Positions 7,234 to 25,965 of a stretch of DNA of 64,000 bases are shown here, piece after piece. The notes beneath the pieces were generated by a model. It did not search any database, was not told the origin of the DNA, and saw nothing but the letters and a program-made list of their open reading frames with translations. The position numbers were made by a program, and so were the translations under genes. The DNA is from an uncultured Klebsiella sp. Lineage in GTDB: Bacteria > Pseudomonadota > Gammaproteobacteria > Ga0077536. The first letter of the stretch is position 1, and each line of letters opens with the position of its first letter. The stretch covers positions 343,177-407,176 of the forward strand of contig CAZKRY010000001.1 in assembly GCA_964555355.1 (NCBI GenBank), in the 5' to 3' direction.

Positions 7234-7237
7234 CTCG

Positions 7238-8302: not shown

Positions 8303-8312
8303 GGCTCTGACT

Positions 8313-8888
8313 ATGGCCTATACCGTTCACCCAAGCGCAATCGTCGATGACGGCGCGCAGATCGGCGATGGCACCCGGATCTGGCACTGGGTGCATGTGA
8401 GCGCGGGCGCGCGGATCGGCCAAGGTTGCTCGCTTGGCCAGAATGTCTATGTGGGCAATCGCGTCGTCATCGGCAATAACGTCAAGATTCAAAATAACGT
8501 TTCGGTATATGACAACGTAACACTAGAAGACGGCGTCTTTTGCGGTCCGAGCATGGTGTTCACGAATGTTTATAACCCACGCTCGGAAGTCTCACGCAAA
8601 GACGAGTACCGCGATACGTTGGTGAAGCGCGGCGCGACCTTAGGTGCTAATTGCACCATCGTGTGCGGGGCGACAATCGGCGAGTACGCATTTATTGGCG
8701 CGGGCGCGGTTGTCAATCGCGATGTGCCGGCGTTTGCGCTAATCGTCGGCGTCCCAGGCAAACAGATGGGATGGATGAGTAAGTTTGGCGAGCGATTGAA
8801 TTTACCGCTCAGCGGAGACGCTGAGTGTATTTGTCCGCATACGAACGAACGTTATGTACTACGAGCCGGCGTGTGTACCACCGTTTGA
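8313..8888 (+). CDS. wbpD: Left-handed beta-helix (hexapeptide) N-acetyltransferase, WbpD-like
   Basis: Hexapeptide repeats ([27 protein letters not shown]...). The start is taken at the internal ATG 8313 (MAYTVHPS) rather than the ORF-track start 8268, to avoid overlapping wbpB. Confidence 0.75.
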
Positions 8889-8916
8889 AGCGAATAAACG
8901 CGACACCTAGGACACC

Positions 8917-10023
8917 ATGATGGAATTCATTGATCTCAAAACGCAGTACCAACGGCTTAAACCGGAAATCGACCGACATATCCAACAAGTGCTCGACCAC
9001 GGCGCCTACATCATGGGGCCCGAAGTCGCGGCGATAGAAGCCAAACTCGCGGAGTATGTCGGCACCAAACACTGCATTACCGTCGCCAGTGGTACCGATG
9101 CACTGCTAATCGCGATGATGGCGCTGGGGATCAAGGCCGGCGATGAAATCATCACGACCCCATTCACGTTTATCGCAACTGGCGAAATGATTGCGCTACT
9201 CGGCGCCAAACCCGTGTTTGTCGATATCGATCGTGAGACCTATAACCTCGATCCCACGCTCACTGAAGCCGCCATCACCTCGCGCACTCGCGCGATCATG
9301 CCGGTGAGTTTGTATGGCCAGTGCGCCGAATTGGACGAGATTAATGCGATCGGCGCCAAACACGGCATTCCGGTGATTGAAGATGCGGCGCAGAGTTTCG
9401 GCGCCACTTACAAAGGCCGAAAATCATGTGCACTTTCCACCATTGGATGCACGAGCTTTTTCCCGTCCAAGCCGCTGGGTTGCTATGGCGATGGCGGCGC
9501 CTGTTTTACGGACGACGATGCGCTCGCCAAAGCAATGCGCGAGATCCGCGTACACGGCCAGGACCGCCGTTATCATCATCCAATCATCGGTGTGAATGGC
9601 CGGATGGATACGTTGCAGTGCGCGATTCTGCTCGCCAAGTTCCCGACGTTTGCGGAAGAAGTACGGCTGCGTGAAGAAATCGGCGCGCGCTACACAGCGC
9701 TAATCAAGAATGCCGCAAGCGGCGCGCAACCGCCGACACTAAGGTCCTACAACACCTCGGTCTATGCGCAGTACACGGTGGAAGTGGACGCGCGAGACGT
9801 GGTCCAAGAAAAATTGAAAGCGGCCGGGATCCCAACCGCCGTGCATTATCCGGTACCGCTACATTTGCAGCCGGCGTTTGCGTCGCTTGGACTGAAAGAA
9901 GGAGCCTTCCCCAAGAGCGAAGCGGCGGCGAAACGGGTGATGAGTTTGCCGATGCATCCGTTTCTAAATGAATCAACTCAACAACAGGTTATTCAAGCGC
10001 TGATGTCGGCGACTTCACGCTAA
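8917..10023 (+). CDS. wbpE: DegT/DnrJ/EryC1/StrS-family PLP aminotransferase, WbpE-like
   Basis: DegT-family fold with the PLP-lysine region (SFFPSKPLGCYGDGGA). Position after the WbpB/WbpD-like genes. Confidence 0.8.
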   Translation: MMEFIDLKTQYQRLKPEIDRHIQQVLDHGAYIMGPEVAAIEAKLAEYVGTKHCITVASGTDALLIAMMALGIKAGDEIITTPFTFIATGEMIALLGAKPVFVDIDRETYNLDPTLTEAAITSRTRAIMPVSLYGQCAELDEINAIGAKHGIPVIEDAAQSFGATYKGRKSCALSTIGCTSFFPSKPLGCYGDGGACFTDDDALAKAMREIRVHGQDRRYHHPIIGVNGRMDTLQCAILLAKFPTFAEEVRLREEIGARYTALIKNAASGAQPPTLRSYNTSVYAQYTVEVDARDVVQEKLKAAGIPTAVHYPVPLHLQPAFASLGLKEGAFPKSEAAAKRVMSLPMHPFLNESTQQQVIQALMSATSR

Positions 10024-10043
10024 TTCAACTTCCGGAGCACAAC

Positions 10044-11039
10044 ATGGATATTCGCGGTAAGAAACTCGTGGTCATTGGTGGAGCCGGTTTAATCGGCTCA
10101 CACGCCGTTGATTTATTAACTAAGGAAGATGTCGGCGAAATCGTTATCTACGATAACTTCGTCCGCGGCACGACCGAAAATTTAGCGGGCGCGTTACGCG
10201 ATCCGCGGGTCAAGGTGTATGAAGCCGGTGGCGACGTTTGTCAGGCGGATATTCTCGATGCGGCGCTCAAAGGCGCGGATGGCGTATTTCATTTCGCCGC
10301 GTTGTGGCTCCTGCAGTGCCATGAGTTCCCGCGCGCGGCGTTTGACGTCAATGTGCGCGGCACTTTCAACGTGCTTGAGGCATGCGTCGCGAACAAAGTT
10401 CAACGCCTCGTCTACTCGTCATCCGCATCAGTCTACGGCGACGCGGTGGAAGAACCGATGACCGAAGACCACCCGTTTCTAAATAAGAATTTTTACGGCG
10501 CGACGAAAATTTGCGGCGAATCGATGGCGCGCGCCTATCACCATCGCTATGGACTGAACTTTGTCGGCTTACGCTACATGAACGTCTATGGCCCTCGCCA
10601 GGATTATCGGGGCGCGTATATCGCGGTGATCATGAAGATGTTGGACGCAATCGACAAAGGTGAGGGCCCAACGATCTTCGGAGACGGCTCCGAAGCTTTT
10701 GACTTTGTGGCCGTTGAAGACTGCGGCGCGGCGAATGTCTGCGCCATGAAGGCCGAGACGGTCGATCGCTTTTACAATGTCGGCACCGGCCATCGGACCT
10801 CTTTAAAAGAAATTGCCGAGCTACTGCTACGTCTATCTGGCTCGAAAGCTACCATCAATTACGCGCCCCGCAGTCAAGCGACGTTCGTTCGCAACCGGAT
10901 CGGCTGCCCGAAACGGGCAACGGCCGAAATCGGTTTTACCGCGAAAATCGCACTCGAAGAAGGCATGCGTCGAGTCATCGATTGGCGCAAGTCGCACATT
11001 GAGGAAGTGAACTCGCGTCGCGCGAAGGCTGCGAAGTAG
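10044..11039 (+). CDS. NAD-dependent epimerase/dehydratase (extended SDR; UDP-sugar 4-epimerase/decarboxylase-like)
   Basis: GGAGLIGSH glycine-rich NAD motif and catalytic YxxxK (YGATKICGE); ~330 aa. Confidence 0.8.
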   Translation: MDIRGKKLVVIGGAGLIGSHAVDLLTKEDVGEIVIYDNFVRGTTENLAGALRDPRVKVYEAGGDVCQADILDAALKGADGVFHFAALWLLQCHEFPRAAFDVNVRGTFNVLEACVANKVQRLVYSSSASVYGDAVEEPMTEDHPFLNKNFYGATKICGESMARAYHHRYGLNFVGLRYMNVYGPRQDYRGAYIAVIMKMLDAIDKGEGPTIFGDGSEAFDFVAVEDCGAANVCAMKAETVDRFYNVGTGHRTSLKEIAELLLRLSGSKATINYAPRSQATFVRNRIGCPKRATAEIGFTAKIALEEGMRRVIDWRKSHIEEVNSRRAKAAK

Positions 11040-11059
11040 GTCGGCGGCGCAGACACACG

Positions 11060-12934
11060 ATGTGCGGAATTGCTGGGATTCTACACCTGGACGGCGCGCC
11101 CGCTTCGGTGACGTTGCTGCGCAGGATGACGGATTCAATCTCGCATCGTGGACCCGATGGCGAAGGTCATCACGTGGATGGGTCGCTCGCGCTAGGACAT
11201 CGACGCCTGTCAATCATCGACTTATCCGCTGCCGGCCATCAACCGATGGCGACACCCGATGGCCGCTACCTGCTTACCTACAACGGGGAGATCTACAACT
11301 TCCAGGAACTACGCACAGCGCTTGAAGCGCTGGGTCGCCAGTTCCGTTCGCGCACGGATTCCGAGGTGTTGCTAATGGGCTTCGCGGAGTGGGGGCTGCG
11401 CGTCCTGGACCGCCTGAACGGCATGTTTGCCTTTGCGATCTGGGACAAAGAAACCCGCACACTGACGCTTGCTCGTGACCGTTACGGTATCAAGCCGCTG
11501 TATTGGGCAAAGGTTGGCGCAACGGTTCTGTTCGGCTCCGAGATAAAGGCGATCCTTGCCCACGGTGCTATCAGGGCAAAACTCGATGGACCGGGTCTCC
11601 TCGAATACTTCACTTTTCAGAACTTTTTCACCGACCATACGCTATTCGACGGAGTGCGATTGTTGCCAGCCGGCACCTATTTGCAAGTCCGCGCCGACGT
11701 GCGCTGGACGCCATCGCCGGTGCGTTATTGGGACTATGATTTCAATGAACCCCTCGAGCGCATATCCGACGCGGAATACCTCGAAGAACTCGACCGGCTC
11801 TTCAAGCAGGCAGTGAACAGGCAACTAGTCAGTGACGTTGAACTCGGCAGTTACCTGTCCGGCGGTATGGATTCGGGTTCCATCACGGCGATCGCGGCGA
11901 GACAGATCCCTGATCTCAAGTCCTTCACGTGCGGTTTCGACCTACGCTCCGCGTCCGGCCTCGAACTGAACTTCGATGAGCGCCAAGCCGCCGAAGCGAT
12001 GTCCTATGAATTTAAGACCGAACATTATGAGATGGTGCTCAAAGCCGGGGACATGGAGCGTGTAATCCCGCGGCTGGCTTGGCACTTGGAGGAACCGCGC
12101 GTTGGCCAGTGCTACCCAAACTTCTATGCCGCGCAACTGGCAAGCAAGTTCGTCAAGGTAGTGCTATCCGGCGCGGGCGGTGACGAGTTGTTCGGTGGTT
12201 ATCCATGGCGCTACTACCGCGCCGTCGTCAACGACGATTTCGAACATTATATCGACAAGTATTATTCGTACTGGCAGCGCTTAGTCCCGAACAAGACCAT
12301 AAAGCAGCTGTTCGCGCCAATCTGGAGCGACGTCAAGGACGTTTGGACACGTGATATTTTTCGCGATGTCTTCGGTCATCACGCCGCTTCGCTCACGCGG
12401 CCGGAAGATTACGTCAACCACTCGTTGTACTTCGAGGCGAAAACTTTCCTGCACGGATTATTGGTGGTGGAAGACAAGATGAGTATGGCGCATTCGCTCG
12501 AAACGCGCGTGCCTTTCCTCGACAACGACCTCGTGGACTTCGCGACGCGCGTGCCGGTATCGCTGAAACTTGGCAACCTAGGCGAAGTGGTGAGACTCAA
12601 CGAGAACGAGCCTTCGCACAAGACGACCAAGTACTATCAGAAAACCAATGATGGAAAACTTTTATTGCGAAAGATGATGTCGCGGCATATCCCGGCGGAG
12701 ATCGCGGATCGTGAAAAGCAGGGGTTTTCCGCGCCCGATGCGAGTTGGTTCAAGGGAGAAAGCATCGACTACGTGAAACGCATGCTCTACCAGGGGCCGA
12801 CAAGCCTCTACAAATTCCTCGATCGCGGTACCGTTCATGGCTTAGTCGATGAGCACCTCGAAGGTCACGAGAATCGGCGGCTGTTGATCTGGTCGTTGCT
12901 GAATGTCGAGCAGTGGTGCAGGCATTACCTGTGA
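11060..12934 (+). CDS. Asparagine synthase (glutamine-hydrolysing)-family amidotransferase, WbpS/AsnB-like
   Basis: N-terminal MCGIAG (Ntn Cys2), GATase-2 domain, PP-loop SGGMDSGS. Confidence 0.85.
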   Translation: MCGIAGILHLDGAPASVTLLRRMTDSISHRGPDGEGHHVDGSLALGHRRLSIIDLSAAGHQPMATPDGRYLLTYNGEIYNFQELRTALEALGRQFRSRTDSEVLLMGFAEWGLRVLDRLNGMFAFAIWDKETRTLTLARDRYGIKPLYWAKVGATVLFGSEIKAILAHGAIRAKLDGPGLLEYFTFQNFFTDHTLFDGVRLLPAGTYLQVRADVRWTPSPVRYWDYDFNEPLERISDAEYLEELDRLFKQAVNRQLVSDVELGSYLSGGMDSGSITAIAARQIPDLKSFTCGFDLRSASGLELNFDERQAAEAMSYEFKTEHYEMVLKAGDMERVIPRLAWHLEEPRVGQCYPNFYAAQLASKFVKVVLSGAGGDELFGGYPWRYYRAVVNDDFEHYIDKYYSYWQRLVPNKTIKQLFAPIWSDVKDVWTRDIFRDVFGHHAASLTRPEDYVNHSLYFEAKTFLHGLLVVEDKMSMAHSLETRVPFLDNDLVDFATRVPVSLKLGNLGEVVRLNENEPSHKTTKYYQKTNDGKLLLRKMMSRHIPAEIADREKQGFSAPDASWFKGESIDYVKRMLYQGPTSLYKFLDRGTVHGLVDEHLEGHENRRLLIWSLLNVEQWCRHYL

Positions 12935-12958
12935 CCATGCGAAAGAACGGAATTCGAT

Positions 12959-13807
12959 ATGGAGTTTAGCCTCATAAACACACTGGCTCCGTCCTCAATC
13001 GCGCGCGCGTGCCGCGCAGCGTATATGACTTTAAGCGCAAATAGAGGCCTGGTTTTCGAGATGACTCGGCGAGACCTGAAGTCCCAATACGCCGGCCAAA
13101 TTATCGGGAATTGGTGGGTTGTGGCTCACCCTTTGTTTATGATGTCGCTCTACGTATTCGTGTTTGCGTACGTATTCAAAGTTAAACTGGGCGGGACTGT
13201 TGATATGCCGCTCAGTTACACGGCATATATACTCAGCGGTCTAGTTCCATGGTTGAGTTTCAACCAATGCATGGCGCGGGCACCGGTTGTTTTGCCGGGC
13301 CACGCCAATCTCGTTAAGCAGGTCGTGTTTCCTCTTGAAGTGCTACCCGCCACCGCAGTTCTACTCAATCTAATACCACTAGCAGTCGGTTTGGTCGTCC
13401 TTTTGGTACACGTGATATGGACGAACGGCCTCCCTCCAGCAACTTATTTGTTGCTGCCGTTGCTTGTTACGCTACAGATGATCGCAATGCTAGGTGTTTC
13501 ATTTGCGCTTGCGGCACTTGGTCCATTTGCCCGAGATACGAAAGATATTGTTCAGATCTTCGCGTTAGCCGGCAATTACCTGATGCCGATTTTTTACCTT
13601 CCCGAATGGGTACCGAACGCCCTGCGGCCTCTGCTTTACCTGAATCCGTTTAGTTATCTCACCTGGTGTTATCAGGACGCGCTTTATTTTGGCCGTTTCG
13701 AACATCCGATTGCGTGGGTGGCGAACACCGTGGGCAGTTTTCTCGTTCTGGCATGGGGATACTCTATTTTCCGTAGACTTCGACCGTTCTTTGGAAGCGC
13801 ATTATGA
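12959..13807 (+). CDS. wzm: ABC-2-type polysaccharide exporter permease (Wzm-like)
   Basis: Six predicted transmembrane segments. The RRDLKSQYAGQIIGNWWVVAHPLFMMSLYVFVF motif is typical of Wzm/KpsM permeases. The start could instead be the internal ATG about 66 nt downstream. Confidence 0.75.
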   Translation: MEFSLINTLAPSSIARACRAAYMTLSANRGLVFEMTRRDLKSQYAGQIIGNWWVVAHPLFMMSLYVFVFAYVFKVKLGGTVDMPLSYTAYILSGLVPWLSFNQCMARAPVVLPGHANLVKQVVFPLEVLPATAVLLNLIPLAVGLVVLLVHVIWTNGLPPATYLLLPLLVTLQMIAMLGVSFALAALGPFARDTKDIVQIFALAGNYLMPIFYLPEWVPNALRPLLYLNPFSYLTWCYQDALYFGRFEHPIAWVANTVGSFLVLAWGYSIFRRLRPFFGSAL

Positions 13808-15081
13808 GTTCCAACGAACTTGCAATTTCAGTTTCGAATTTGTGTAAGGCATATAACGTCTATAATTCTCCGCGCGATTTTATTGTCGAGACGATTACAT
13901 CAAAACCGCGCCACATTAAGCAGCTTGCACTTCGAGACGTATCTTTTGAGATCCGACGCGGAGAAATTGTAGGGATAATCGGATCGAACGGTGCCGGTAA
14001 GAGTACGCTGCTCAAAATCCTCGCGGGCACGTTAGACCGCACGAGCGGACAAGTCGCCGTTTACGGCAAGATTTCCGCAATTCTTGAGCTGGGCACTGGA
14101 TTTCATCCTGATTTCACCGGGCGCGAGAACATCATTATCGGCGGAATGTGTTTGGGCATGACCCGAGAGGAAGCTATTCGAAAAGCGCCTTCGATCATTG
14201 AATTCAGTGAGCTAGAGTCGGTAATCGATCAACCGTTTAAAACTTACTCTAGCGGTATGCAGGCGAGGCTGACATTTTCTACGGCGATCAGCATCGACCC
14301 AGACATTCTGATAATCGATGAAGCCCTCGCAGCAGGTGACGCATATTTCGTTAGAAAATCTTTGGCGCGACTACGAGAGATATGCCGCTCGGGCGTGACC
14401 GTGTTGTTGGTGACACATTCAACCGACATAATCGCGACGTTGTGTCAACGCGCTATCTGGCTCGGAGATGGCACGATTCGCATGGAGGGCCCCGCAAAAT
14501 CCGTTGCCAATGCTTATGAGTTAGATGTGGAACGACGAATTACTGCGGGATACAAAGACGCACAAGCAAGAACCTTCGCAAGTAAGGTAAGCGCTGACGG
14601 CGAAGCTTATAGCTTTCTACGCGCTGGGATCGATATCGTCCAATGCCGGGTAGAAGATTCAAATGGCCAGGAGCGAGAGTCATTCGCGCAAGGGGAGCCT
14701 CTACGCATAGTCATTCGGTGGCGCGGACAATTTGACGGAACGTTACATCCAGTTATCGGTATACGATCAACTAGTGGAGTTGTAAGTGGTTTCGTTGGCT
14801 GCGAGCATGGTGTCTATCTGCGGACGCCCAGCGGAGAGGGTCTTATTGCACTGGATATAATCGATCCACTTTATGGTCTCGGCGAGTACTCGATCTCGCT
14901 TTCACTAGTCCGCTCGGACCCCGTTCAAGCCTTAGAAGAGGAAGTGTGTTTCATTCGGAATGCAGCCAAATTCTACGTAAGGCGGCGATTTCCCCGAAGC
15001 TATTGCTATGCGTACGAACCCCGTGTTCGCTGGCGAGATAGCGACGGATGCGAAATCTCTTCACTCGAAATTGAGGCATGA
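13804..15081 (+). CDS. wzt: ABC transporter ATP-binding protein (Wzt-like) with a C-terminal glycan-binding extension
   Basis: Walker [13 protein letters not shown] signature YSSGMQARL, Walker B ILIIDEA. An additional ~170-aa C-terminal domain, as in O-antigen Wzt. ATGA overlap with wzm. Confidence 0.85.
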
Positions 15082-15084
15082 CTC

Positions 15085-16707
15085 ATGAATAAATTTCCCG
15101 AAAATATCCATCTGCGCGCGAGGTCAAACGAGTCGAGCTTAGCGTCAGGATTTTTGCGTGGCATGAGATGGTTTTCGAGCGCGTTCGCGAAAAAACCGAG
15201 AGCCGCGCGACTAATCGGATATCTTGTGGTCAGTAAACAGATTGATCAGTCGTACGAAGAGAAGCGGATCAAAAGAATTATTCACGAGTTACGCGCCAGT
15301 GGAACTACTCAATTTGCGGCGAGTGAACTTACTGGAAATGCGCAAATAGATTCACTGTTCAATGAAGTAATCCCGCTGCAGAAACTACCGACCGAATACG
15401 CAAATGATTTTGTCGTAATGTGTCCTACGAGTCAGTACCACGTCACGAACCTACATCTCAAAACAATGATTAGTGCTGCGCGCCTTAGCGGTAAAACATC
15501 TTGCTACCAGATCGTCGGCAGTGAATTTATAGGAAATATGGGATTGCACTTCTGCATAGCCGTTTTGGCGCCGCAATCCGCTAGCATTAATCCCGCCCGC
15601 TTGGGATATCTAAATTTTTGGAACGAGCAGACGCCATTCGACGATGAAACAACTGTAAATTGGCTGGAGATTTCCGACGCTGAGCTACGCGAAGCCTATC
15701 GAAGCTATGCAGAAATTGGTCGCCCTAAGACGGTTACCGTCGAACTCAATAGCACTTGTAACTTCAAATGCAGTTACTGCCCTTTCCACGGCGACGACAC
15801 AGAGAATCCCCTCTATGTCGGCCCGAAGTTAGGACGCGAAATGTGCCTTGAAGACTTCGCCAAACAGGTTCGGTCTGTCGCTGAATGGAAAGATGAATTC
15901 GATCCGCAGGTCGCAACTATTGCCCCGTTCTGGCGTGGCGAGTTTTTTATGGCGGGAAAATGGCAGGAAGCCCTCGCGGTGATAAAAGAGAACGGCCTAC
16001 GCTCATATGTATGCACAAATGGCTCGGTGCTGCGAAGGGATATCGTCGACACATTAATGAAGACTGGCCTGCTAGATCATTTAACCATTAGCCTTGACGC
16101 GACAGATGATGAACAGAACTGGGCTACACGTCGGAACGCAAAATTTGATCGTATTCAATCCATTATTGAATATGCGTTAAGTGAACGGGCTCGCTTGGCA
16201 CGGCCGATGACGATCGCGCTTAACTTCACGATCGTCACCGAAAACAAGGAAGCTATCGAAGCCTACGTGGAGCAGTGGGGATCAAAAGTAGATTACATTT
16301 TGATGGGACCGCGCCACAAAATGAATCCACAATCACTACATGGTGAATATGAGCAGGACTTGGTTCCATGGGAACAAGCGCCGATACCGATGCGGCGAGT
16401 TCCATGCGTTTATCTGGTTAATACCATATCTGTGAATTGTGACCAGGAGATGCATCTGTGCGCCCCGTGCGGTTCGCAACGAATCGAAGTTGCTAACGTC
16501 TCAAAGCGTGGGATAGCCGTTGAACGAAGTGAGTCGGTAAAAGTGAAAGAAACCATTAAATCCTTTGAAGATGGGTCTTTCGAAAATAATGATTACTGTC
16601 GGAATTGCAGCATGTGGCGATTCCACTTCCAGAGTAGAGAAGAGCGCATGGGCTACGCCTTTACGATGAACCCGCAGGCATGGACTATCACTCGTAAGCA
16701 GCTGTGA
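15085..16707 (+). CDS. Radical SAM protein with a ~220-aa N-terminal domain of unknown function and a Cys-rich (SPASM-like) C-terminus
   Basis: CNFKCSYC matches the CxxxCxxC radical-SAM cluster motif. The C-terminal cysteines (CVYL..C..C..CG; CRNC) suggest auxiliary clusters. Local GC is lower than in the flanks. Confidence 0.7.
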   Translation: MNKFPENIHLRARSNESSLASGFLRGMRWFSSAFAKKPRAARLIGYLVVSKQIDQSYEEKRIKRIIHELRASGTTQFAASELTGNAQIDSLFNEVIPLQKLPTEYANDFVVMCPTSQYHVTNLHLKTMISAARLSGKTSCYQIVGSEFIGNMGLHFCIAVLAPQSASINPARLGYLNFWNEQTPFDDETTVNWLEISDAELREAYRSYAEIGRPKTVTVELNSTCNFKCSYCPFHGDDTENPLYVGPKLGREMCLEDFAKQVRSVAEWKDEFDPQVATIAPFWRGEFFMAGKWQEALAVIKENGLRSYVCTNGSVLRRDIVDTLMKTGLLDHLTISLDATDDEQNWATRRNAKFDRIQSIIEYALSERARLARPMTIALNFTIVTENKEAIEAYVEQWGSKVDYILMGPRHKMNPQSLHGEYEQDLVPWEQAPIPMRRVPCVYLVNTISVNCDQEMHLCAPCGSQRIEVANVSKRGIAVERSESVKVKETIKSFEDGSFENNDYCRNCSMWRFHFQSREERMGYAFTMNPQAWTITRKQL

Positions 16708-17546
16708 TGCTGTCTGCGCGAGGGAATTCTGATATGACAGCGAAAAATGAATGGAAAGCGTCCCTTCATTCTTTCTTCGATCAGAGAGGTGGGGAGTTAT
16801 TGTCACATCCTACCTTGCAGGAGTTATGTTACGTGAGCGGTCGCGATCCGCGATTGTGGTCCGATCCCGTAATGTATGGCGATCTGATAAGAAGCATCGT
16901 TGACAGTCTGAGTGTCAGCAAATCGGCTTCGATTCTGGAAGTCGGCTGCGCGGCCGGATTTATCGCCAACGGCGTCGCCCCACTAGTTAAAAACTATATT
17001 GGTATCGACCTCGCGCGGAATGCTCTCGTTGCCGCAGGGAGGCTCGGTCTCCCCAATGCGGTGTTTAAGCATTCAGACGGAAGCTCCGTTCCACTTCAGA
17101 GTAGTTCCGTGGATGCGGCATTTTGTTACGACGTGGTAACCAACTTTCCCTCGTTCGACGACGTCGAGCCTCTAATTGCCGAAATGCTTAGAGTAGTTCG
17201 ACCTGGTGGTAAGGTCATGATTGGTTCCGTGCCGGATGCAGCTTGCCGGGATGAATACGAGCAGCGGATACAAGAGGTGGCAAAAGAACTCGATGCTAAA
17301 TTTGGTCCATCAGTACCACAAGTCAATGGTGTCAAGACGAATTCTCTCCTAAAGGGCGTGATTCGCCATTTATTTCGAAGACCGAGTGCACCGCCGCCGG
17401 CCATCTTTTGCTACTACTTTAGTCGAGCAGACTTTAGGGCGGTTGCGCAGCGTTTCGGGGTACGGTTGGTGTTTGGTGAAATCCACGAGATGAATCCGTA
17501 TCGAGGGCACCGCTTTAACGCAATTTTCCAACGTGTGGGGTCATGA
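16704..17546 (+). CDS. Class I SAM-dependent methyltransferase
   Basis: Motif I ILEVGCAAG, motif post-II VRPGGKVMIG. The GTG/ATG start overlaps the radical-SAM stop (GTGATG). Confidence 0.75.
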   Translation: MMLSARGNSDMTAKNEWKASLHSFFDQRGGELLSHPTLQELCYVSGRDPRLWSDPVMYGDLIRSIVDSLSVSKSASILEVGCAAGFIANGVAPLVKNYIGIDLARNALVAAGRLGLPNAVFKHSDGSSVPLQSSSVDAAFCYDVVTNFPSFDDVEPLIAEMLRVVRPGGKVMIGSVPDAACRDEYEQRIQEVAKELDAKFGPSVPQVNGVKTNSLLKGVIRHLFRRPSAPPPAIFCYYFSRADFRAVAQRFGVRLVFGEIHEMNPYRGHRFNAIFQRVGS

Positions 17547-18667
17547 GGCCGATAGCCCATGCATTAATTGATGCGGTCGATTGGGAAAAGACTTGCGGAC
17601 TTGCATCCGAAGCATGGCTTTTCCATCGATATGATTGGGTTGGAATAGAGGCGGACAATTGGGCGGAGTCAAATGCGTCATTCGCTCTCTTTGACAACCG
17701 AGGGATGATAGGAATTGCCCCGCTTTATGGCGTTGTTAGCGGCGACGAGCGCCTAGTACATTCCGGTATTCATCGCCATGCGGGCTTGGCACTAATCGAT
17801 GGCTTGTCCCTCGGAGACCAGCGCGCCGCGCGCGATGCATACATCAAGAGAGTTTTACGGGTGGCGCGCGACTTCGGCGCACACCGGATCCAATTGAATG
17901 CGCATAACCTGAGTCCGGCCATGCGCGAATTTCCCCGTGAAGAGATCCCGTTCTTCGTGCAGAACTATGGCTTTCATTCTGGCCTTGCCTTCGGTCCAAC
18001 CGGGATCCAGGCCGCACCCGGCATGTCCACGTGCAATGCCGATCAAATCGTCGATCTAGCGCCCTCCGAAGATCAGTTGTTCGCAAATCTTGACGAGGCC
18101 TGCCGCCGGGCGGTCCGCAAGGCGCAAAAAAGCGGGTTGAGCGCGCGTGAGGCCACGCAGGAAAGCGACGTTCGGGCGTACTACGCGCTGGCAGAACTAT
18201 CGGCACGTCGCACTGGCGAGACTTTGCCGCCATACGACTATTACGCACGCATCTGGAGAACGTTCCACGCCCGCGGTCATTGCCGTATTCTTTTCGCACA
18301 AATAGGCGGAGAGCGTCTCGCGGCATTGATGCTGTTCGCGGATCGCGGCGCGATGAACTTCGCGGCGGGTGTCACGGCGCCGGAAGCGCTGCCGCTGCGC
18401 GCCAATGATTTCTTGCACTGGGAGGCCATCCGCCTCGCAAAACGCGAACGCCTTTCGCACTACCGCCTCGGTCCGATTTTCCCGGAGGTACCGTCGTCCT
18501 GGCCGATTGCCATGGTGTCGCGTTTCAAGGGCAAATTCGGTGGCCGCTCGGTGCCGATCGTTCAAGGCAGTTTTTTTCTCGACCCCGCGCGCTATCTGCA
18601 GCAGGGCATCGCGCAGTTGACCGCGCTGTGTTCGCAACCGCGCGACGAAGTCGTGCAGGATGACTGA
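17543..18667 (+). CDS. FemAB/BioF2-like GNAT-fold acyl(aminoacyl)transferase-family protein
   Basis: ~370 aa with two GNAT-like halves, of a size and pattern resembling Fem/PF13480-type proteins. ATGA overlap with the upstream methyltransferase gene. Confidence 0.45.
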   Translation: MRPIAHALIDAVDWEKTCGLASEAWLFHRYDWVGIEADNWAESNASFALFDNRGMIGIAPLYGVVSGDERLVHSGIHRHAGLALIDGLSLGDQRAARDAYIKRVLRVARDFGAHRIQLNAHNLSPAMREFPREEIPFFVQNYGFHSGLAFGPTGIQAAPGMSTCNADQIVDLAPSEDQLFANLDEACRRAVRKAQKSGLSAREATQESDVRAYYALAELSARRTGETLPPYDYYARIWRTFHARGHCRILFAQIGGERLAALMLFADRGAMNFAAGVTAPEALPLRANDFLHWEAIRLAKRERLSHYRLGPIFPEVPSSWPIAMVSRFKGKFGGRSVPIVQGSFFLDPARYLQQGIAQLTALCSQPRDEVVQDD

Positions 18668-18696
18668 CAGTTAGCACAACTGAGACGATTCGAAGT

Positions 18697-20094
18697 ATGA
18701 ATTCCACCGACCACGACGCGGCGTTGGAACTGCTGAAGCATCTCGCGCGCGTATTCGGTCTCGCCCCAAGCGTGTTCGATTTGCAGCGCGCATGCGTCAT
18801 CCGCGGAAATCTTGCCGCGACGGGCGAAATTTCCCCACGCTGCGAACTCATCGTTCTGCTGGCACCCGATGCCGCGGCCTGTGCACAGCTCGATCTGGTC
18901 GCTTCAGTGCACCCACCGATATCGGATTTGTTTGCGGTCAACGAACGACCCTCGTTGCGCATGTCGTCGCTGCACGGTTATCAAACTTTTGTTGACGATA
19001 AGGGACACTGTCGGCCAGTGGTGCGGGATGCCGCGGGTCGCAACGCATGGATCGAAGTTGAGCAGGGCGGCCGTCGCTGGCTCGTGGTTGGCACAGCGCT
19101 TGTGGCTGACCTCGAACGCTTTCGTCAGGGTGACCCTGCGCGAGCCAACGATCGTTCGCAGAGTGCGAAATGGGATTTTGCGTTCGAGCGCCCGAACTAT
19201 CTGTTCGAGGCCCAGTTGCAGGGGCTCGATGCGCGCGTGCGCCACGCGGACTACTGGTGCGAAACGCTCGTCGGCGCGATTGCCGGCGCCATCCCGACAG
19301 CGCGAAGGCCGATCCTGCCGGGCGATGCACCGGGCGCGCTCGTGATCACCGGCGACGACGATCAGGCTTACCTCGAAAAATATGCGGCACAGCAGGAGGC
19401 GCTTGCAGGACTGCCAATTACCTATCTGATGCATCCGCTGACGCGACATGACCGCCAGAGCGCCAGGCGCATGTTTGGATGTCGACGAGTGGAACTCGGC
19501 ATCCATCCGGACGCGCTCGAGACGCCTTCGGCGTATGGCTCTCGGCTCGATGAACAAGTCCGTTGGTTCGAGTCTCGTTTTGGCTTTAGAGCCACGAGCG
19601 TGCGCAATCACGGCTTTCTCAACGATGGGTATTGGGGACATCTACCCGCTTGGCAGACCGCAGGAATCCATATCAGCTCAAATATTCCGGGCTTGGACGG
19701 TAATTTGTTGAACGCATCAATGTTGCCAGGGCGCGTACTGTTCGATGGCGTCTTGTCATCGCACTGGTCCGTTCTGACGACATTTGGCGACGGCATGGTG
19801 TTCGCGCTTGGCTTATCGGACATGGCGGCGTCGGCGCGCGTCGGCGACAGCGCCGCCGCGATCGTCGCGTCCCGCGTGCCGGGCGTCATCGTCGTAAATC
19901 TCCATCCGCAGAACATTGACAGCACTCGACGGATTCACGATGTCCTGCGCGAGATTGCACAAATGGGCTTTGTAGCGTGGACGCTCGCCGATTGCTGGCG
20001 CTGGTTCAATGAACTTGATCGGCGCGAAACGCCGCGGCCGTTCCTACACCGAGCGGCAGTGACTGCGCGCAGTCTGTTGCGAGTAAGATCGTGA
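18697..20094 (+). CDS. Hypothetical protein; the C-terminal half resembles the polysaccharide deacetylase/CE4-like fold
   Basis: ITGDDD, HPD, RNHG and NLHP motifs are spaced as in NodB-type deacetylases. The N-terminal 200 aa are of unknown function. Confidence 0.35.
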   Translation: MNSTDHDAALELLKHLARVFGLAPSVFDLQRACVIRGNLAATGEISPRCELIVLLAPDAAACAQLDLVASVHPPISDLFAVNERPSLRMSSLHGYQTFVDDKGHCRPVVRDAAGRNAWIEVEQGGRRWLVVGTALVADLERFRQGDPARANDRSQSAKWDFAFERPNYLFEAQLQGLDARVRHADYWCETLVGAIAGAIPTARRPILPGDAPGALVITGDDDQAYLEKYAAQQEALAGLPITYLMHPLTRHDRQSARRMFGCRRVELGIHPDALETPSAYGSRLDEQVRWFESRFGFRATSVRNHGFLNDGYWGHLPAWQTAGIHISSNIPGLDGNLLNASMLPGRVLFDGVLSSHWSVLTTFGDGMVFALGLSDMAASARVGDSAAAIVASRVPGVIVVNLHPQNIDSTRRIHDVLREIAQMGFVAWTLADCWRWFNELDRRETPRPFLHRAAVTARSLLRVRS

Positions 20095-21683
20095 CTTTTG
20101 TTAAGACTGCCACTTTGTCCTGGTCCGCGAACCTGCAAACTGGCTGGCGTAACTATCAATGGCGCAGGCTGAACGGATTGCGCGAAGCGCAACGGTTGGA
20201 GGTGTTGTGGCGCGGTGCTCCACCGGTTGAGCGCTTCGACTCCTGGGACCCGGCTCCATGGCGTCACCCGTGGCTCACTCCGGATAATCTACGCGCAATG
20301 CGCGACTACAGCGAAACGTGCCTCACACGTTGGCAACACGAAGCCGACACGCCTCATGTCGGGCAATCGGAACGCTACGCGTTCATCGGCAACCTCGCGA
20401 ATAACATGTACATGCGTGCGCGTCCGCTGCGCCGGCTTGGCCTCGACATCGACGTCTATTTGCACCCTCAGGATCACTATGTGATGAGCCAACCGGGCTG
20501 GGAGGAATTGCACGGACTGATCGAAAGTTCCGAGACAGATATGCGGCGGTTGCGTGAGCAGGGGGTAACCCTGCCAACGGTGCCTGGAGTCTATCAGTCG
20601 CCAGAGTCCGCACCGATTTCCGCGCAAGAGGCATATCTACGCTACCCGCATTTGTCGGCGCGCGATGTCCTGCGTTGGCTGCCATACCTGAACGGACACG
20701 ACTGGCTGCATGAACTCGCGGGCTACGACGCATTGCTGTGCGCACAGTCAACCTTCGTCGGATTGTTGTCCGGCCAACCGTATGTGGCCGCGCACGTCGG
20801 CGGCGATATCTGGTATGAATGTTCGCGCGGCGACTTACTCGGCAGGCTGCAACTCGAAGCCTATCGTCGCGCTGCGGTAATGCTCGCGTCGAACCCGTGG
20901 AGCTTCGCTCACGCGCGACGCTACGGCTTGTGTAACGCCATCTATGTCCCGCTGGTACTCGACGAAGAGTTCTATGCGCCAGGTCCGAGCCCGTTTCGCC
21001 AGACCTGGATGAACTCGAGCGGTGGCGACTTTTTTGTGTTCAGCGCGGTTCGTCAGAACGATGCGATTAAGGGAACGCTCACCGGACTCGAGGGCTTCGC
21101 GCGTTTCGCAGCGAACCGGCCGGGCGCCAGGCTGGTCATCGTCGAATGGGGCCAGCAGTCCGACCTCAATCTAGAACGGTTCGCAGCACTCGGTATCAGC
21201 GACAAAGTTATCCGTGTGCCGATTGCCGGAAAGCGGCGCGTTGTCGACTACCTGCGTTCGGCCGACTGCTCAATCGACCAGTTTACGCTCGGCTATTACG
21301 GCGCTAGCGCCCTCGAGGCCATGGGTTGCGGCCTGCCTGTCATCATGCGTATCGAACACGCGCAGTACGCCGCATTATGTCGCGCCGGTGCACCGCCGGT
21401 GGTCGAGGCGGCGACAGCCGGAGAAGTTGCCTCGGCGCTTGAACGGTTAAGAGCGAACGTCGATCTTCGTCGCGCCACAGCGAGTGCGCAGCGAGATTGG
21501 TTTGTGGCCGCCCATGGGGCCAAGGCCTGGTATCCGGCGCTCGTGGCGATGTTGCGTGTGACAGCGACTGGGCGTCGGGAGCGCTTCGCGCATTCACCGC
21601 TGCGGATGCGTCTTTCGACGGTAGAACGCGACTATCACACGCAGGGTCTGGCCCGCGCCCCGAAATTTCCAAACTATCAATGA
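20091..21683 (+). CDS. GT-B fold glycosyltransferase (GT4-like), paralog 1 of 3
   Basis: N-terminal IGNLANNMY motif shared with the other two paralogs. C-terminal donor-binding domain (EAMGCGLPVIM). GTGA overlap with the upstream gene. Confidence 0.55.
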   Translation: MTFVKTATLSWSANLQTGWRNYQWRRLNGLREAQRLEVLWRGAPPVERFDSWDPAPWRHPWLTPDNLRAMRDYSETCLTRWQHEADTPHVGQSERYAFIGNLANNMYMRARPLRRLGLDIDVYLHPQDHYVMSQPGWEELHGLIESSETDMRRLREQGVTLPTVPGVYQSPESAPISAQEAYLRYPHLSARDVLRWLPYLNGHDWLHELAGYDALLCAQSTFVGLLSGQPYVAAHVGGDIWYECSRGDLLGRLQLEAYRRAAVMLASNPWSFAHARRYGLCNAIYVPLVLDEEFYAPGPSPFRQTWMNSSGGDFFVFSAVRQNDAIKGTLTGLEGFARFAANRPGARLVIVEWGQQSDLNLERFAALGISDKVIRVPIAGKRRVVDYLRSADCSIDQFTLGYYGASALEAMGCGLPVIMRIEHAQYAALCRAGAPPVVEAATAGEVASALERLRANVDLRRATASAQRDWFVAAHGAKAWYPALVAMLRVTATGRRERFAHSPLRMRLSTVERDYHTQGLARAPKFPNYQ

Positions 21684-22744
21684 GCAGCGAGCTGACTGTC
21701 CGTTACTACCTAGCAGGCGAGCTGCCGATGGCCGAATACGAAGGCTGGCTCGCGAACCGCCGCAACGCGCTGATCTACGCCGCGCCGATGTTCCATCGCT
21801 TCCTCGGTGCGGCGGTTGGTGGTGAGTGTCATTATTTGATCGCGCGGCGCGGAGATTCGCTATGCGGTGCGCTAGCATTTTTTAGACGCGATGTGCTGGG
21901 CATCGGCTGTGTCGTCAACAGTCTACCCTGGTACGGCACACACGGTGCTTGCATTGGTGTCGACGCAGACGATGTCGCTACCCGAGTTTCTCTTATCGGT
22001 ACTTTCCGCGATTACACGCGTGAGGCGCGACCACTGTCATCGACGCTAATCCTCACGCCCGAAGAATCGCTGCACGCTGACGAGTACACAGCGGGCCAAG
22101 CGCACGTCGTTACCGATGGTCGTATTGGACAGTGGACGCGTCTGCCGCAAAGCGGCAGTGCACCTGATCTTGCGGCGACATTGCTGCAGAAAACTCGTAA
22201 CCTCGTCAACAAGTCACTACGCCAAGGCTTTCGCGAAGAAATTGGGGATGAATCAGACGCAGCGTGGGAATTTCTCGGTAACGTGCATGCGGAGAATCTA
22301 CGGGCGATAGGCGGCAAGGCAAAACCATGGGCGCATTTCGAAGCCTTACGTGCTGAGATCCCGCTACCACATCGCCGCTTAACGATCGCCTGGCTCGGCG
22401 ATGAACCCGTTGCCGCACTCCTGCTTCTCGCGTTTAACGAGACAGTGGAATACGTAACTCCGGTGATCCGGGCCGAGTATCGTTCGCAGCAACCGCTGTC
22501 GTTTTTGATCTGGCAAGGCATGCTCTGGGCTATGCAGCAAGGTTTTCGCTGGTGGAACTGGGGCGGTACCTGGAGCACCCAGACGAACCTACTACATTTC
22601 AAGGCGGGTTGGGGCGCGCTCGAACGGCCGTACACTTATGTCATCAGCGCATCGCCGGACGCGCTCACGCAGTTTCGTACGGGGTTCGACGAACTCGCAC
22701 AGGCTTTTCCTTACTACTACCTTTATCCGCACGGTAGTCTTTGA
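21680..22744 (+). CDS. FemAB/BioF2-like GNAT-fold acyltransferase-family protein (second copy)
   Basis: The start is reset to ATG 21680, whose ATGA overlaps the upstream stop; the ORF-track start 21497 would overlap the upstream gene by 190 nt. Similar length and architecture to 17543..18667. Confidence 0.45.
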   Translation: MSSELTVRYYLAGELPMAEYEGWLANRRNALIYAAPMFHRFLGAAVGGECHYLIARRGDSLCGALAFFRRDVLGIGCVVNSLPWYGTHGACIGVDADDVATRVSLIGTFRDYTREARPLSSTLILTPEESLHADEYTAGQAHVVTDGRIGQWTRLPQSGSAPDLAATLLQKTRNLVNKSLRQGFREEIGDESDAAWEFLGNVHAENLRAIGGKAKPWAHFEALRAEIPLPHRRLTIAWLGDEPVAALLLLAFNETVEYVTPVIRAEYRSQQPLSFLIWQGMLWAMQQGFRWWNWGGTWSTQTNLLHFKAGWGALERPYTYVISASPDALTQFRTGFDELAQAFPYYYLYPHGSL

Positions 22745-23799
22745 TGAGCACGATCCCCCACAGTCGCCCAACGCTCGAGCATCACGACATTGAACGTATT
22801 ACTGCGCAATTCGCCTCAGGCATGGTTGCCGAAGGCGAACTGACGGCGGCAGTCGAAGCCCGGTTGGCTCAGCGCTGGCGCATGGTCGCCGCCACCGCGA
22901 CAGGGTCCGGCACGCAAGCGCTTGTTCTCGCGCTCGCCGCGCTCGGTGTCGACAGTAGCGCCGAGGTGATATGCCCGGACTATGTATGCCCGGAGGTGCT
23001 CGCGGCGATCGAGGCGCGTGGAGCCACGCCCGTGCTAGTCGACATTGGCGAAGACTATTTCCCTTCGCGGGACAGCCTCGTGGGTGCGATAACCTCCCGT
23101 ACTGGCGCCATCGTGCTGCCATTTTTGTTTGGGCTCTATAAGCCACTAGACGGTTTGCGGGATCTAGGGGTGCCGTTGATCGCCGATTGCGCGCAGTTTT
23201 TCCCCGCGCAAAATTCCGCGGTCGACGTGGCTGCGGACCTCATCGTGCTTTCCTTCGAGGGCACCAAGTTGTTGACGAGCGGAGAAGGTGGAGCCGTGCT
23301 CGCGGAGAGTGCATCACTTGGCGCGCGAGTCGCCAAGTACAAACGTCTAGACGATGGACCCTACAAGCGAAACCTTTATCCCTTCTCCGATCTGCAGGCA
23401 GCTCTCCTCGACGCGCAGCTCGATCGAATTGACGAATTTCTTGACCGGCGCCATCGGCTCGCGGAGCATTACAAAACTGGGCTACAACTGGCGCCGCATA
23501 TCTCCTGTCCCGGCTGGCTAGCGCCGTACTCCTGCTTCTTTCGGTATCCGTTGCGCATTGAGAACGCGCCCGACGAGTTGGTCGCGCGCCTGATCGAGTT
23601 CTGTGGCGCGCGCGATGTCGCTGTGCGCAGACCTGTAGACACACTGCTGCACAGACTGCGTCCGCAAGCCATGGACTTCCCTGGCGCCGAACGGGCATGG
23701 CGCGAGACGCTGTCGATACCGATTTACCCTGGGCTTGCCGCAACCGAGCAGACCCGGGTCATCGACGTCGTCAACGAAGCATTGGCCGCCTGCGGCTAG
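22744..23799 (+). CDS. DegT/DnrJ/EryC1/StrS-family aminotransferase (short form)
   Basis: PLP-lysine region SFEGTKLLTSGEGG. ATG 22744 overlaps the upstream stop (tgATGa). Confidence 0.7.
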   Translation: MSTIPHSRPTLEHHDIERITAQFASGMVAEGELTAAVEARLAQRWRMVAATATGSGTQALVLALAALGVDSSAEVICPDYVCPEVLAAIEARGATPVLVDIGEDYFPSRDSLVGAITSRTGAIVLPFLFGLYKPLDGLRDLGVPLIADCAQFFPAQNSAVDVAADLIVLSFEGTKLLTSGEGGAVLAESASLGARVAKYKRLDDGPYKRNLYPFSDLQAALLDAQLDRIDEFLDRRHRLAEHYKTGLQLAPHISCPGWLAPYSCFFRYPLRIENAPDELVARLIEFCGARDVAVRRPVDTLLHRLRPQAMDFPGAERAWRETLSIPIYPGLAATEQTRVIDVVNEALAACG

Positions 23800-23808
23800 G
23801 AGGACCTA

Positions 23809-25955: not shown

Positions 25956-25965
25956 GTCAGTTCGG

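Follow-up and report, generated by a model that had tools for sequence, protein, structure and literature searches.

A predicted three-domain radical SAM protein encoded beside wzt in an O-polysaccharide locus, with a possible role in accessory glycan tailoring

Gene content of the locus and the replaced cassette

The window, a 64,000 nucleotide stretch of DNA from an uncultured Klebsiella sp., contains a glycan locus of ~30 kb (about 6.5-36.2 kb) around a gene encoding a radical SAM protein (rSAM). The locus contains WbpB/D/E-like genes, three DegT genes, two AsnB-like genes, Wzm/Wzt, several glycosyltransferases, a sulfotransferase and a WbmS-like deacetylase, and this gene content bears out the glycan setting proposed for rSAM in an earlier, sequence-only reading of this DNA. 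The best reading of the locus is that it is Bordetella wbm-like and ABC-transporter-dependent, and that it builds an O-polysaccharide of the 2,3-diacetamido-uronic acid type. It shares with Bordetella wbm a WbpB/D/E-type diacetamido-uronic acid pathway, SDR epimerases, AsnB-like amidotransferases, a WbmS-like deacetylase and the ABC transporter (PMC3849452, PMC2279256), but additionally has the sulfotransferase and FemAB-like genes. The GC content of the window is ~58%, compared to ~67% for Bordetella (PMC3849452), and the source organism differs.

The features surrounding rSAM are listed in Table 1. Both parts of a carbohydrate-binding domain (CBD)-dependent O-antigen ABC export system are encoded, namely an ABC-2 permease and a Wzt carrying a CBD; the Wzt_C score of the window protein is sub-threshold, and the homologous Wzt proteins in the loci of relatives carry recorded Wzt_C matches. 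The ATG of rSAM lies 3 nt past the wzt stop. Further downstream, orthologues of the FemAB-like protein that are 43-78% identical were found in loci L002, L008, L010 and L011. The adjacent 465 amino acid protein is 45% identical over 444 amino acids to the C-terminal half of an 866 amino acid protein of L002, and elsewhere the two proteins occur as a single fusion (866 amino acids in L002, 860 in Bosea).

Table 1. Features in and around the rSAM gene of the window
Feature	Positions	Strand	Evidence
Replaced cassette Wzm-Wzt-rSAM-MTase	12935..17612	+	blastn breakpoints, GC3, identity vs L010
Wzm, ABC-2 permease of O-polysaccharide exporter	12959..13807	+	Pfam ABC2_membrane, E = 2e-15
Wzt nucleotide-binding domain (residues 1-245)	13804..14538	+	Pfam ABC_tran, E = 5.5e-22; NCBIfam Wzt/RfbE-like, 198 bits
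Wzt C-terminal carbohydrate-binding domain (CBD; residues 246-425)	14539..15081	+	weak Pfam Wzt_C, 21 bits vs cutoff 30.4
rSAM, three-domain radical SAM protein, 540 aa	15085..16707	+	intact ORF; AF2 model pLDDT 79, pTM 0.80
rSAM N-terminal domain (residues 38-213), GT-A / nucleotidyltransferase-like alpha/beta fold in model, without canonical catalytic motifs	15196..15723	+	
Radical SAM core (residues ~214-425), RGE(F/L) motif (G285, E286) and N312	15724..16359	+	Pfam PF04055; structure matches
CX3CX2C motif CNFKCSYC (residues 225-232; C225, C229, C232), predicted SAM-binding [4Fe-4S] site	15757..15780	+	inside Pfam Radical_SAM match
Twitch domain (residues ~436-515), invariant C441, C459, C505, C508, one predicted auxiliary [4Fe-4S] cluster	16390..16629	+	BtrN profile alignment; predicted topology
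Class I SAM methyltransferase (MTase), likely start ATG 16734, ORF extendable to GTG 16704	16734..17546	+	Pfam Methyltransf_11/25
FemAB / GNAT (Acetyltransf_6)-like acyl- or aminoacyl-transferase, conserved MTase neighbour	17543..18667	+	Pfam
465-aa protein, no family match	18697..20094	+	Pfam and NCBIfam searched

Comparison by blastn with L010, a gene-for-gene collinear locus that lacks rSAM, gave a continuous alignment at ~78% identity over positions 7237-12934 and 17613-26368, with only short patches in between. GC3 was 0.49-0.54 within this interval versus 0.64-0.69 in the flanks, and protein identity to L010 was 51-57% within it versus 72-94% in the collinear flanking genes. Wzm, Wzt, rSAM and the MTase together constitute a low-GC replacement block. 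In Bordetella wbm the genes for terminal-residue modification and the ABC transporter likewise lie in variable, low-GC regions (PMC3849452). The behavior of the cassette resembles wbm antigenic variation, and it may therefore bear on the evasion of phages or immunity.

Domains and relatives of rSAM

The 540 amino acid reading frame is intact, and the CNFKCSYC motif follows an N-terminal region of ~220 residues, as the sequence-only reading had described. Its radical SAM assignment held in an HMM search, in which Pfam Radical_SAM (PF04055) matched residues 223-367 at 55.2 bits (cutoff 29.5). C225, C229 and C232 are invariant in 19/19 relatives, as are G285, E286, N312 and D403 of the core; together with four C-terminal cysteines described below, this makes seven cysteines conserved throughout the 19 relatives. 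The protein also has the GGE-like and ribose-binding S/T-N motifs of a SAM-binding core and a partial TIM-barrel fold, and the core would be expected to cleave SAM to the 5'-deoxyadenosyl radical. Structural matches to the core included DesII, SuiB, BlsE, BtrN, viperin, MoaA and anSME, with SkfB and PqqE also among them, and the nearest structures were mostly sugar- or nucleotide-acting enzymes (DesII, BlsE, BtrN, viperin, AprD4, MoaA). The only significant sequence matches in the PDB were viperin or viperin-like enzymes and BtrN. DesII, BlsE, AprD4 and viperin, whose substrates are nucleotide-linked or amino sugars, are 12-17% identical to rSAM in these matches, but none has a GT-A-like N-terminal domain and none is linked to O-antigen export.

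The family is small: billions of proteins yielded 8 close full-length members and ~11 distant ones. Scanning genome contigs added only a relative in Bradyrhizobium sp. Pha-3, and scanning metagenome contigs returned weak, core-only matches alone. A glycan context surrounds the relatives in 8 of the 9 examined loci that have any neighboring genes, which supports the earlier view that rSAM is an uncharacterized radical SAM enzyme associated with a glycan pathway. The gene contexts of the two nearest short relatives, P0023 and P0028, were uninformative.

Generic source labels such as 'sulfatase maturation enzyme AslB', along with SuiB, SkfB, anSME and PqqE among the structural matches, might be taken to suggest that rSAM matures a protein or peptide, as an enzyme of the anSME, PqqE or RiPP type, in a coincidental glycan context. 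The best NCBIfam score of rSAM was 44.6 bits against curated cutoffs of 170-650, with the same outcome for 10 relatives, and no curated cutoff for PqqE, anSME, MoaA, viperin, NirJ or the RiPP maturases was reached. There is no RRE domain at the N terminus of rSAM, where the modeled domain is GT-A-like, no sulfatase gene in the surrounding glycan locus, and no precursor peptide gene beside rSAM, since the flanking gaps are only 3 and 26 nt. With the recurring glycan context, these results make a maturase very improbable.

The best full-length-like partial match was to TIGR04321, a 510 amino acid NCBIfam model named 'spiro-SPASM protein', on which we found no literature. Residues 214-511 of rSAM align to model positions 230-505, and since the alignment begins at position 230, TIGR04321 also has an N-terminal region of ~220 residues before the core. 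However, rSAM is not a member, because its 40 bits fall short of the cutoff of 250, and the N-terminal regions do not align.

The cysteine clusters that the sequence-only reading had pointed out near the C terminus are present and conserved, but its comparison to SPASM domains did not stand. Only four C-terminal cysteines, C441, C459, C505 and C508, are invariant in 19/19 relatives, and in a profile alignment they fall on cysteines 169, 187, 232 and 235 of BtrN (numbering of the tag-free chain). A twitch domain has one cysteine before a beta-hairpin, one after it and two past helix alpha2', and holds a single auxiliary cluster, whereas a SPASM domain has the seven-cysteine motif CX9-15GX4C-gap-CX2CX5CX3C-gap-C and two auxiliary clusters (PMC6231123). 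The layout in rSAM is C441, a predicted beta-hairpin (447-458), C459, a predicted helix (485-495), and then C505 and C508. No match to PF13186 (SPASM) was obtained in a Pfam search of the protein, and CX5CX3C is absent after the hairpin, where there is just a CX2C (C459, C462) whose second cysteine is missing from the distant clade. A SPASM classification was rejected on these grounds, and by its cysteine pattern and predicted topology the C terminus is a one-cluster twitch domain. The auxiliary cluster of BtrN is ligated by four cysteines (PMC6231123, PMC10337720), and the twitch domain of rSAM would similarly hold one fully cysteine-ligated [4Fe-4S] cluster.

The N-terminal region was previously described as lacking a recognizable motif and as a novel domain. 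The first part of this description holds, in that no sequence family was detectable by Pfam scans of each member or by a PDB search with a 19-member profile; a profile search of a set of 5.8 billion proteins failed to recover the rSAM family itself and is uninformative. The second does not, as judged from structure prediction. Modeled alone, the domain matched solely nucleotide-diphospho-sugar transferase folds and has their alpha/beta/alpha arrangement; the AlphaFold models had just 8 sequences as input, and identity to the matches was 5-12%. It is thus, in the model, a very diverged GT-A or nucleotidyltransferase-like fold. The G-x-G-x-R/K loop is absent after strand 1, the DxD position reads C-P-S/T-x-Q-Y-H with no DxD in the close clade, and R61 is the sole invariant residue. 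The domain would most likely only bind substrate, either a nucleotide-sugar or a glycan terminus.

The predicted fold could also be taken to suggest a bifunctional enzyme and a self-contained chain terminator, in which an active transferase domain makes or adds a capping residue that the radical SAM domain modifies. WbdD and WbbB are products of terminator genes next to wzt in other ABC-dependent systems, a position that rSAM resembles, and in several of the distant members the QYH motif is preceded by an acidic residue. We consider this improbable, given the missing catalytic motifs, the single invariant residue and the lack of sequence similarity to any transferase family. CBD-type Wzt proteins are moreover present in loci that lack rSAM, and capping is therefore independent of the rSAM protein.

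The downstream methyltransferase

Pfam confirmed the gene downstream of rSAM as a class I methyltransferase. The sequence-only reading had the rSAM stop overlapping its start, and the codons in question, GTG (16704) and ATG (16707), do occur; the real start is probably ATG 16734. The deposited protein of 270 amino acids begins there, the alignment with homologues does not begin before residue 11, and a Shine-Dalgarno sequence (GAGGG) lies 9 nt upstream. Because all three fit ATG 16734, the overlapping start, and with it translational coupling by overlap, is doubtful, and rSAM and the MTase are therefore close neighbors separated by 26 nt and not demonstrably overlapping.

The suggestion that rSAM and the MTase form a specific functional unit failed when their co-occurrence was checked. 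An obligate, translationally coupled pair, yielding for example a methylated radical-derived product, would be consistent with the rSAM-MTase-FemAB-like gene order shared by the window, L002 and the distant L008, and with the position of the MTase inside the same replaced cassette. However, at least 163 MTase orthologues exist versus about 20 rSAM relatives, a family about ten times commoner, and identity among the orthologues is 44-57% whether or not the locus has rSAM. In L010 and in Bosea L011, Wzt runs straight into the MTase with no rSAM between them, while in L001, P0003 and P0005 rSAM is present and an adjacent MTase is absent. An obligate pair was rejected on the basis of these loci and abundances, and with the overlapping start probably not genuine, a coupled two-enzyme unit has little probability. 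Judged from sequence comparison of the loci, the better-conserved partner of rSAM appears to be the Wzt CBD and not the MTase.

Association of rSAM with a Wzt domain type and its possible role

rSAM lies directly 3' of a Wzt_C-type Wzt in all five close-clade loci in which the upstream gene could be seen (the window, L001, L002 and the P0004 and P0005 contigs). In the distant-clade locus L009 it is not adjacent to Wzt. The CBDs are 33-40% identical among close rSAM-positive loci and 41% identical between the rSAM-negative loci, but only 19-26% identical across the two groups, whereas the Wzt ATPase domains are 57-71% identical over the six loci and do not split by rSAM state. The association comprises these six loci and may partly reflect plain co-inheritance of adjacent DNA. 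The insertion of rSAM between wzt and the MTase is optional, and rSAM and one particular Wzt CBD type are inherited together.

From this co-inheritance we infer that rSAM most likely alters the cap residue or an activated precursor of it. When O-antigen synthesis depends on an ABC transporter, capping governs both the length of the chain and its export. A CBD-bearing Wzt recognizes the terminal cap (PMC9445017). We therefore favor, with a probability of roughly 0.5, a role for rSAM in accessory glycan tailoring, namely remodeling of the chain-terminal cap read by Wzt. The radical would remove a hydrogen atom from one of the ring carbons in the cap sugar, changing the non-reducing terminal residue or its activated precursor, and Wzt would have to recognize this cap before export.

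A different possibility is that rSAM tailors the nucleotide-sugar precursor of a backbone or side group, and that the altered polymer indirectly selects a different Wzt CBD. The Wzt CBD and the CBD/NBD interface also contact repeat-unit sugars behind the cap (PMC9445017), so that a backbone change is conceivable. The GT-A-like fold predicted for the N-terminal domain suggests a nucleotide-linked substrate, and the distant relatives in L009 and L007 lie in diacetamido-uronic acid loci away from Wzt. However, the glycosyltransferases of the window and L010 are 72-81% identical, as similar as the remainder of the two loci, and give no hint that donor or acceptor specificity has changed, and divergence is restricted to the transporter/MTase cassette. 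This alternative is accordingly unlikely.

Returning to cap remodeling, no extra partner gene separates rSAM-positive from rSAM-negative loci, and we therefore lean toward a self-contained outcome. The candidate chemistries, in order of preference, would be radical epimerization, oxidation to a ketone as in BtrN or DesII, and decarboxylation of a uronic acid as in BlsE. Two clade-specific residues that are candidate hydrogen atom donors for epimerization, C310 and C462, are absent from the distant clade.

BtrN (2-deoxy-scyllo-inosamine dehydrogenase, a twitch radical SAM enzyme, PDB 4M7S/4M7T) matches rSAM in cysteine pattern and fold, but is only about 16% identical to it, has no N-terminal domain and belongs to an aminoglycoside rather than an O-polysaccharide pathway. 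BtrN-type dehydrogenases oxidize a secondary alcohol by two electrons, and BtrN works with a dedicated aminotransferase. Here, the three DegT genes of the window are also those of L010, so that rSAM-positive loci have no aminotransferase of their own, and this identical complement weakens a BtrN-like scheme in which rSAM supplies a keto-sugar to an extra DegT.

The known O-antigen caps (methyl, methyl-phosphate and Kdo) depend on SAM methyltransferases, kinases or a Kdo transferase, and the systems that make them resemble this locus in having Wzm, a CBD-bearing Wzt and modification genes beside wzt (PMC9445017). In the literature on radical SAM enzymes together with O-antigen, Wzt or caps, we found none assigned to capping. 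A cap made by a radical SAM enzyme would be an export signal of a new chemical kind, added to these three, and the collinear loci with and without rSAM, each with its matching CBD type, would be a natural pair for the co-evolution of transporter specificity and cap chemistry. More tentatively, it is possible that rSAM makes a hitherto unknown non-reducing-end cap that is read by the matched Wzt CBD, and that its N-terminal domain represents a type of module, new among radical SAM enzymes, that recruits the substrate. Such a cap might be, for example, an epimerized, oxidized or decarboxylated diamino-uronic acid. The combination of a GT-A-like domain, as modeled, with a radical SAM core and a twitch domain is a new architecture that could show how radical SAM enzymes recruit nucleotide-sugars or glycans, the N-terminal domain then doing for sugars what the RRE does for peptides.

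Domain organization of the radical SAM protein

The intact 540-aa radical SAM protein (rSAM) had been read from sequence as carrying a canonical CxxxCxxC motif after a ~220-aa N-terminal region, and this was borne out, since residues 225-232 are CNFKCSYC and the Pfam Radical_SAM model matches residues 223-367 at 55 bits (cutoff 29.5). A search of 5.8 billion protein clusters returned only eight full-length relatives (34-43% identity; the close clade), including a protein of Bradyrhizobium sp. Pha-3. When 1.84 billion representatives were searched exhaustively with a profile, ~11 further and more distant full-length members (500-546 aa) emerged, together with a large cloud of shorter proteins matching the core and C-terminus only. 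The family is very rare: of 185,579 species-representative genomes, a single one has a relative. No NCBIfam model is matched above its curated cutoff by any member, and even the best-scoring partial matches (spiro-SPASM, tungsten-cofactor maturase, twitch subfamily, viperin and MoaA) all fall far short. Because the first 37 residues are unconserved, have a pLDDT below 50 and precede the point where homologues begin, the true start codon could lie further downstream, for example at M27.

Features of the locus and of related loci (window coordinates unless stated)
Feature	Position	Strand	Details
Glycan locus	about 6.5-36.2 kb		~30 kb
DNA homology to L010	7237-12934; 17613-26368		unbroken, ~78%
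Wzm-Wzt-rSAM-methyltransferase cassette	12935-17612		low GC3, sharp homology breakpoints vs L010
rSAM ORF	15085-16707	+	start 3 nt past stop of upstream gene
rSAM first 37 residues	15085-15195
465-aa protein	18697-20094		no Pfam or NCBIfam match
Overlapping ORFs	20091-21683; 21497-22744		187-nt overlap as listed
Sulfotransferase	23809-24807
Wzt-rSAM pair, Bradyrhizobium sp. Pha-3 (L001, CP170152)	8692-11494 of L001
Distant radical SAM protein	7838-9121 of L007		427 aa, ~120-aa N-terminal extension

Exactly seven cysteines are invariant among the 19 full-length members: the three of the CxxxCxxC motif (C225, C229 and C232) and C441, C459, C505 and C508. Cysteine clusters near the C-terminus had been likened to SPASM/twitch domains. 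SPASM is defined as CX9-15GX4C-gap-CX2CX5CX3C-gap-C with two auxiliary clusters, twitch being a SPASM truncated to one cluster (PMC6231123). A SPASM assignment is ruled out, as the CX5CX3C segment was not found in the C-terminal region and only four C-terminal cysteines are invariant. In a profile search of PDB sequences these four instead align with BtrN Cys 169, 187, 232 and 235 (position in the tag-free chain), with identical C-X17-C...C-X2-C spacing. The BtrN auxiliary cluster has four Cys ligands (PMC10337720), of which the first precedes a beta-hairpin, the second follows it and the other two come after helix alpha2' (PMC6231123); the predicted hairpin (447-458) and helix (485-495) of rSAM fit a twitch domain. 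The C-terminal region is thus a twitch domain, predicted to hold one auxiliary cluster. Two further cysteines, C310 in the core and C462 just past the hairpin, are invariant in the close clade only.

The N-terminal domain, described earlier as novel, is so by sequence, having no Pfam family or PDB sequence match even with the 19-member profile, but not by modelled fold. When residues 38-215 were modelled alone (pLDDT 80.5) and the structure search was repeated, only nucleotide-diphospho-sugar transferase folds were matched: GlmU and CofC (11.7 each, scores as listed), IspD and CMP-NeuAc synthetase (11.2), RmlA and a MobA-related protein (10.9), KdsB (10.8), and GT-A glycosyltransferases (8-10) including mannosylglycerate synthase, EXTL2, KfiA and ArnC. 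The catalytic signatures of these transferases were not found in the domain; at the position of the GT-A/MobA-like acidic metal-binding motif the close clade has C-P-S/T-x-Q-Y-H, and R61 is the sole residue of the domain invariant in all 19 members. Since the catalytic signatures are absent, the model suggests a diverged, putative binding module for a nucleotide-sugar or glycan rather than a second catalytic centre.

For the core, the top-ranked Foldseek structures were DesII, SuiB, viperin, BtrN, EpeE, AprD4, MoaA and anSME, and the significant PDB sequence matches were viperin or viperin-like enzymes and BtrN only. The prominence of sugar- or nucleotide-acting enzymes among these matches, the absence of an RRE domain from rSAM, and flanking gaps too small for a precursor peptide gene argue against a peptide-maturase role.

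The glycan locus and the methyltransferase

The glycan-locus setting was confirmed. Around rSAM lie genes for a WbpB-like oxidoreductase, a hexapeptide acetyltransferase, a WbpE-like aminotransferase, SDR epimerases, two AsnB-like amidotransferases, the ABC exporter Wzm and Wzt, two further DegT aminotransferases, two FemAB/GNAT (Acetyltransf_6)-like proteins, a sulfotransferase, a second methyltransferase, a WbmS-like deacetylase and several glycosyltransferases. Such gene content is akin to that of wbm-type Bordetella loci for polymers of 2,3-diacetamido-uronic acid (PMC2279256, PMC3849452).

The gene following rSAM encodes a class I SAM methyltransferase whose start had been placed at GTGATG. 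Codons GTG 16704 and ATG 16707 indeed share bases with the rSAM stop (TGA, 16705-16707), but the deposited length (270 aa, starting at ATG 16734), homologues that align only from residue 11 on, and a GAGGG 9 nt before that ATG all favour ATG 16734 as the true start codon. The genes are therefore tightly spaced, with a probable gap of 26 nt, and their overlap is doubtful. Nor did the proposed coupling of the pair hold up. The methyltransferase does not depend on rSAM, since it directly follows Wzt without rSAM in L010 (GCA_943370145.1) and in Bosea (L011), and its family (at least 163 orthologues at E <= 1e-20) is ~10x commoner. Co-occurrence was found elsewhere, in L002, whose gene order (Wzm-Wzt-rSAM-methyltransferase-FemAB-like) is identical to that of the window, and in the distant relative P0009, which has the identical rSAM-methyltransferase-FemAB-like triad; the methyltransferase and FemAB-like proteins are true orthologues between loci (44-50% identity). 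Another locus, P0010, has the same gene classes (Wzt_C transporter, PAPS synthesis, sulfotransferase, DegT, ~556-aa glycosyltransferase and AsnB-like).

In L002 (866 aa) and Bosea (860 aa) the 465-aa protein is fused to the C-terminus of its FemAB/GNAT-like neighbour, which implies that the two act together; its TGDDDQA...HPD motifs may echo those of CE4/NodB-type deacetylases. PAPS-synthesis genes were not found in the window's locus; CysD and CysNC adjoin the sulfotransferase in L002, L009 and L011, and the glycan is probably sulfated. Since the L010 homologue of ORF 21497-22744, a GNAT/Acetyltransf_6 protein, has only 354 aa, the true start of this ORF is probably later than TTG 21497.

A replaced export cassette

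The L010 locus is gene-for-gene collinear with the window; protein lengths agree, and the products of the collinear flanking genes are 72-94% identical in amino-acid sequence. Between 12934 and 17613 DNA homology is lost save for short patches, which fall within Wzm, within the ATPase domain of Wzt and within the methyltransferase, and GC3 is 0.49-0.54 within this interval and 0.64-0.69 outside. As the homology loss coincides with the low-GC block, Wzm-Wzt-rSAM-methyltransferase is a replaced cassette, reminiscent of the variable regions known from Bordetella wbm, and rSAM is optional in this locus type.

In every close-clade locus with a visible upstream gene (window, L001, L002, and the P0004 and P0005 contigs), rSAM comes immediately 3' of a Wzt whose C-terminus is a Wzt_C carbohydrate-binding domain (CBD). 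The Bradyrhizobium Wzt-rSAM pair has neither Wzm nor glycan genes beside it; its neighbours are a BrnT/BrnA toxin-antitoxin pair and an IS481-type transposase, and it looks like a transferred fragment or remnant. Isolated in this way among unrelated and mobile genes, the two genes give the impression of moving together.

Amino-acid identity of the Wzt domains over six loci
Comparison	ATPase	CBD
All pairs, range	57-71%	19-41%
rSAM-positive with each other, all four, mean	62.5%	29.8%
rSAM-positive vs rSAM-negative, mean	64.4%	23.6%
Close-clade rSAM-positive (window, L001, L002) with each other		33-40%
rSAM-negative (L010, L011) with each other	71%	41%
Close-clade rSAM-positive vs rSAM-negative		19-26%
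L009 (distant-clade rSAM, not adjoining Wzt) vs all others	57-64%	20-27%

When Wzt was divided into its two domains, the CBD split by rSAM state and the ATPase domain did not, a co-variation drawn from six loci and confounded by co-inheritance of adjacent DNA. Although L010 resembles the window more closely overall than any other locus does, its CBD ranks with those least like the window's.

Proposed role and chemistry

A CBD-bearing Wzt exports only polymers with a chain-terminating cap at the non-reducing end, the known caps being methyl, methyl-phosphate or Kdo (PMC9445017). In Bordetella, terminal-residue modification genes and the ABC transporter sit in variable, low-GC parts of the locus, and the terminal modifications define serotype (PMC3849452). 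Since the CBD co-varies with rSAM and its Wzt requires capped polymers, the simplest reading is that rSAM alters the cap, or the activated precursor of the cap residue, and hence that a matching CBD is needed. Since the CBD also contacts sugars behind the cap, rSAM may instead modify the backbone, though this is less probable.

In altering a cap residue, a 5'-deoxyadenosyl radical would take an H atom from a sugar carbon, with the putative Cys4 auxiliary cluster conducting electrons, a role proposed for those of BtrN and anSME (PMC6231123). Apart from rSAM, no gene distinguishes the window from L010, which suggests a self-contained reaction; BtrN-like oxidation feeding an extra DegT aminotransferase is weakened, the DegT set being identical in L010. 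Epimerisation at an unactivated carbon is tentatively ranked first, because the clade-specific C310 or C462 could donate the H atom and because EpeE, an epimerase, belongs to the closest structures that show the highest identity to rSAM. Oxidation to a keto sugar, ranked second, is a similarly tentative choice; BlsE-like decarboxylation of a uronic acid (PMC3715490) comes third and is improbable, and some other reaction takes up the remainder.

Twitch radical SAM enzymes acting on carbohydrates are already known, and our literature search turned up no report of O-antigen capping by a radical SAM enzyme. What is new is the modelled GT-A-like N-domain fusion, a protein covered by no described family, and rSAM as an optional gene of an O-polysaccharide export cassette, tied to Wzt CBD type. 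The distant radical SAM gene of L007 lies in a glycan locus with UDP-sugar dehydrogenase, WbpB-like and WbpE-like genes, and such enzymes may be a recurring accessory of diamino-uronic-acid glycan loci. On the P0004 contig (JGI 3300047160), Wzt is flanked by two radical SAM genes, one of 480 aa just upstream and the family member just downstream.
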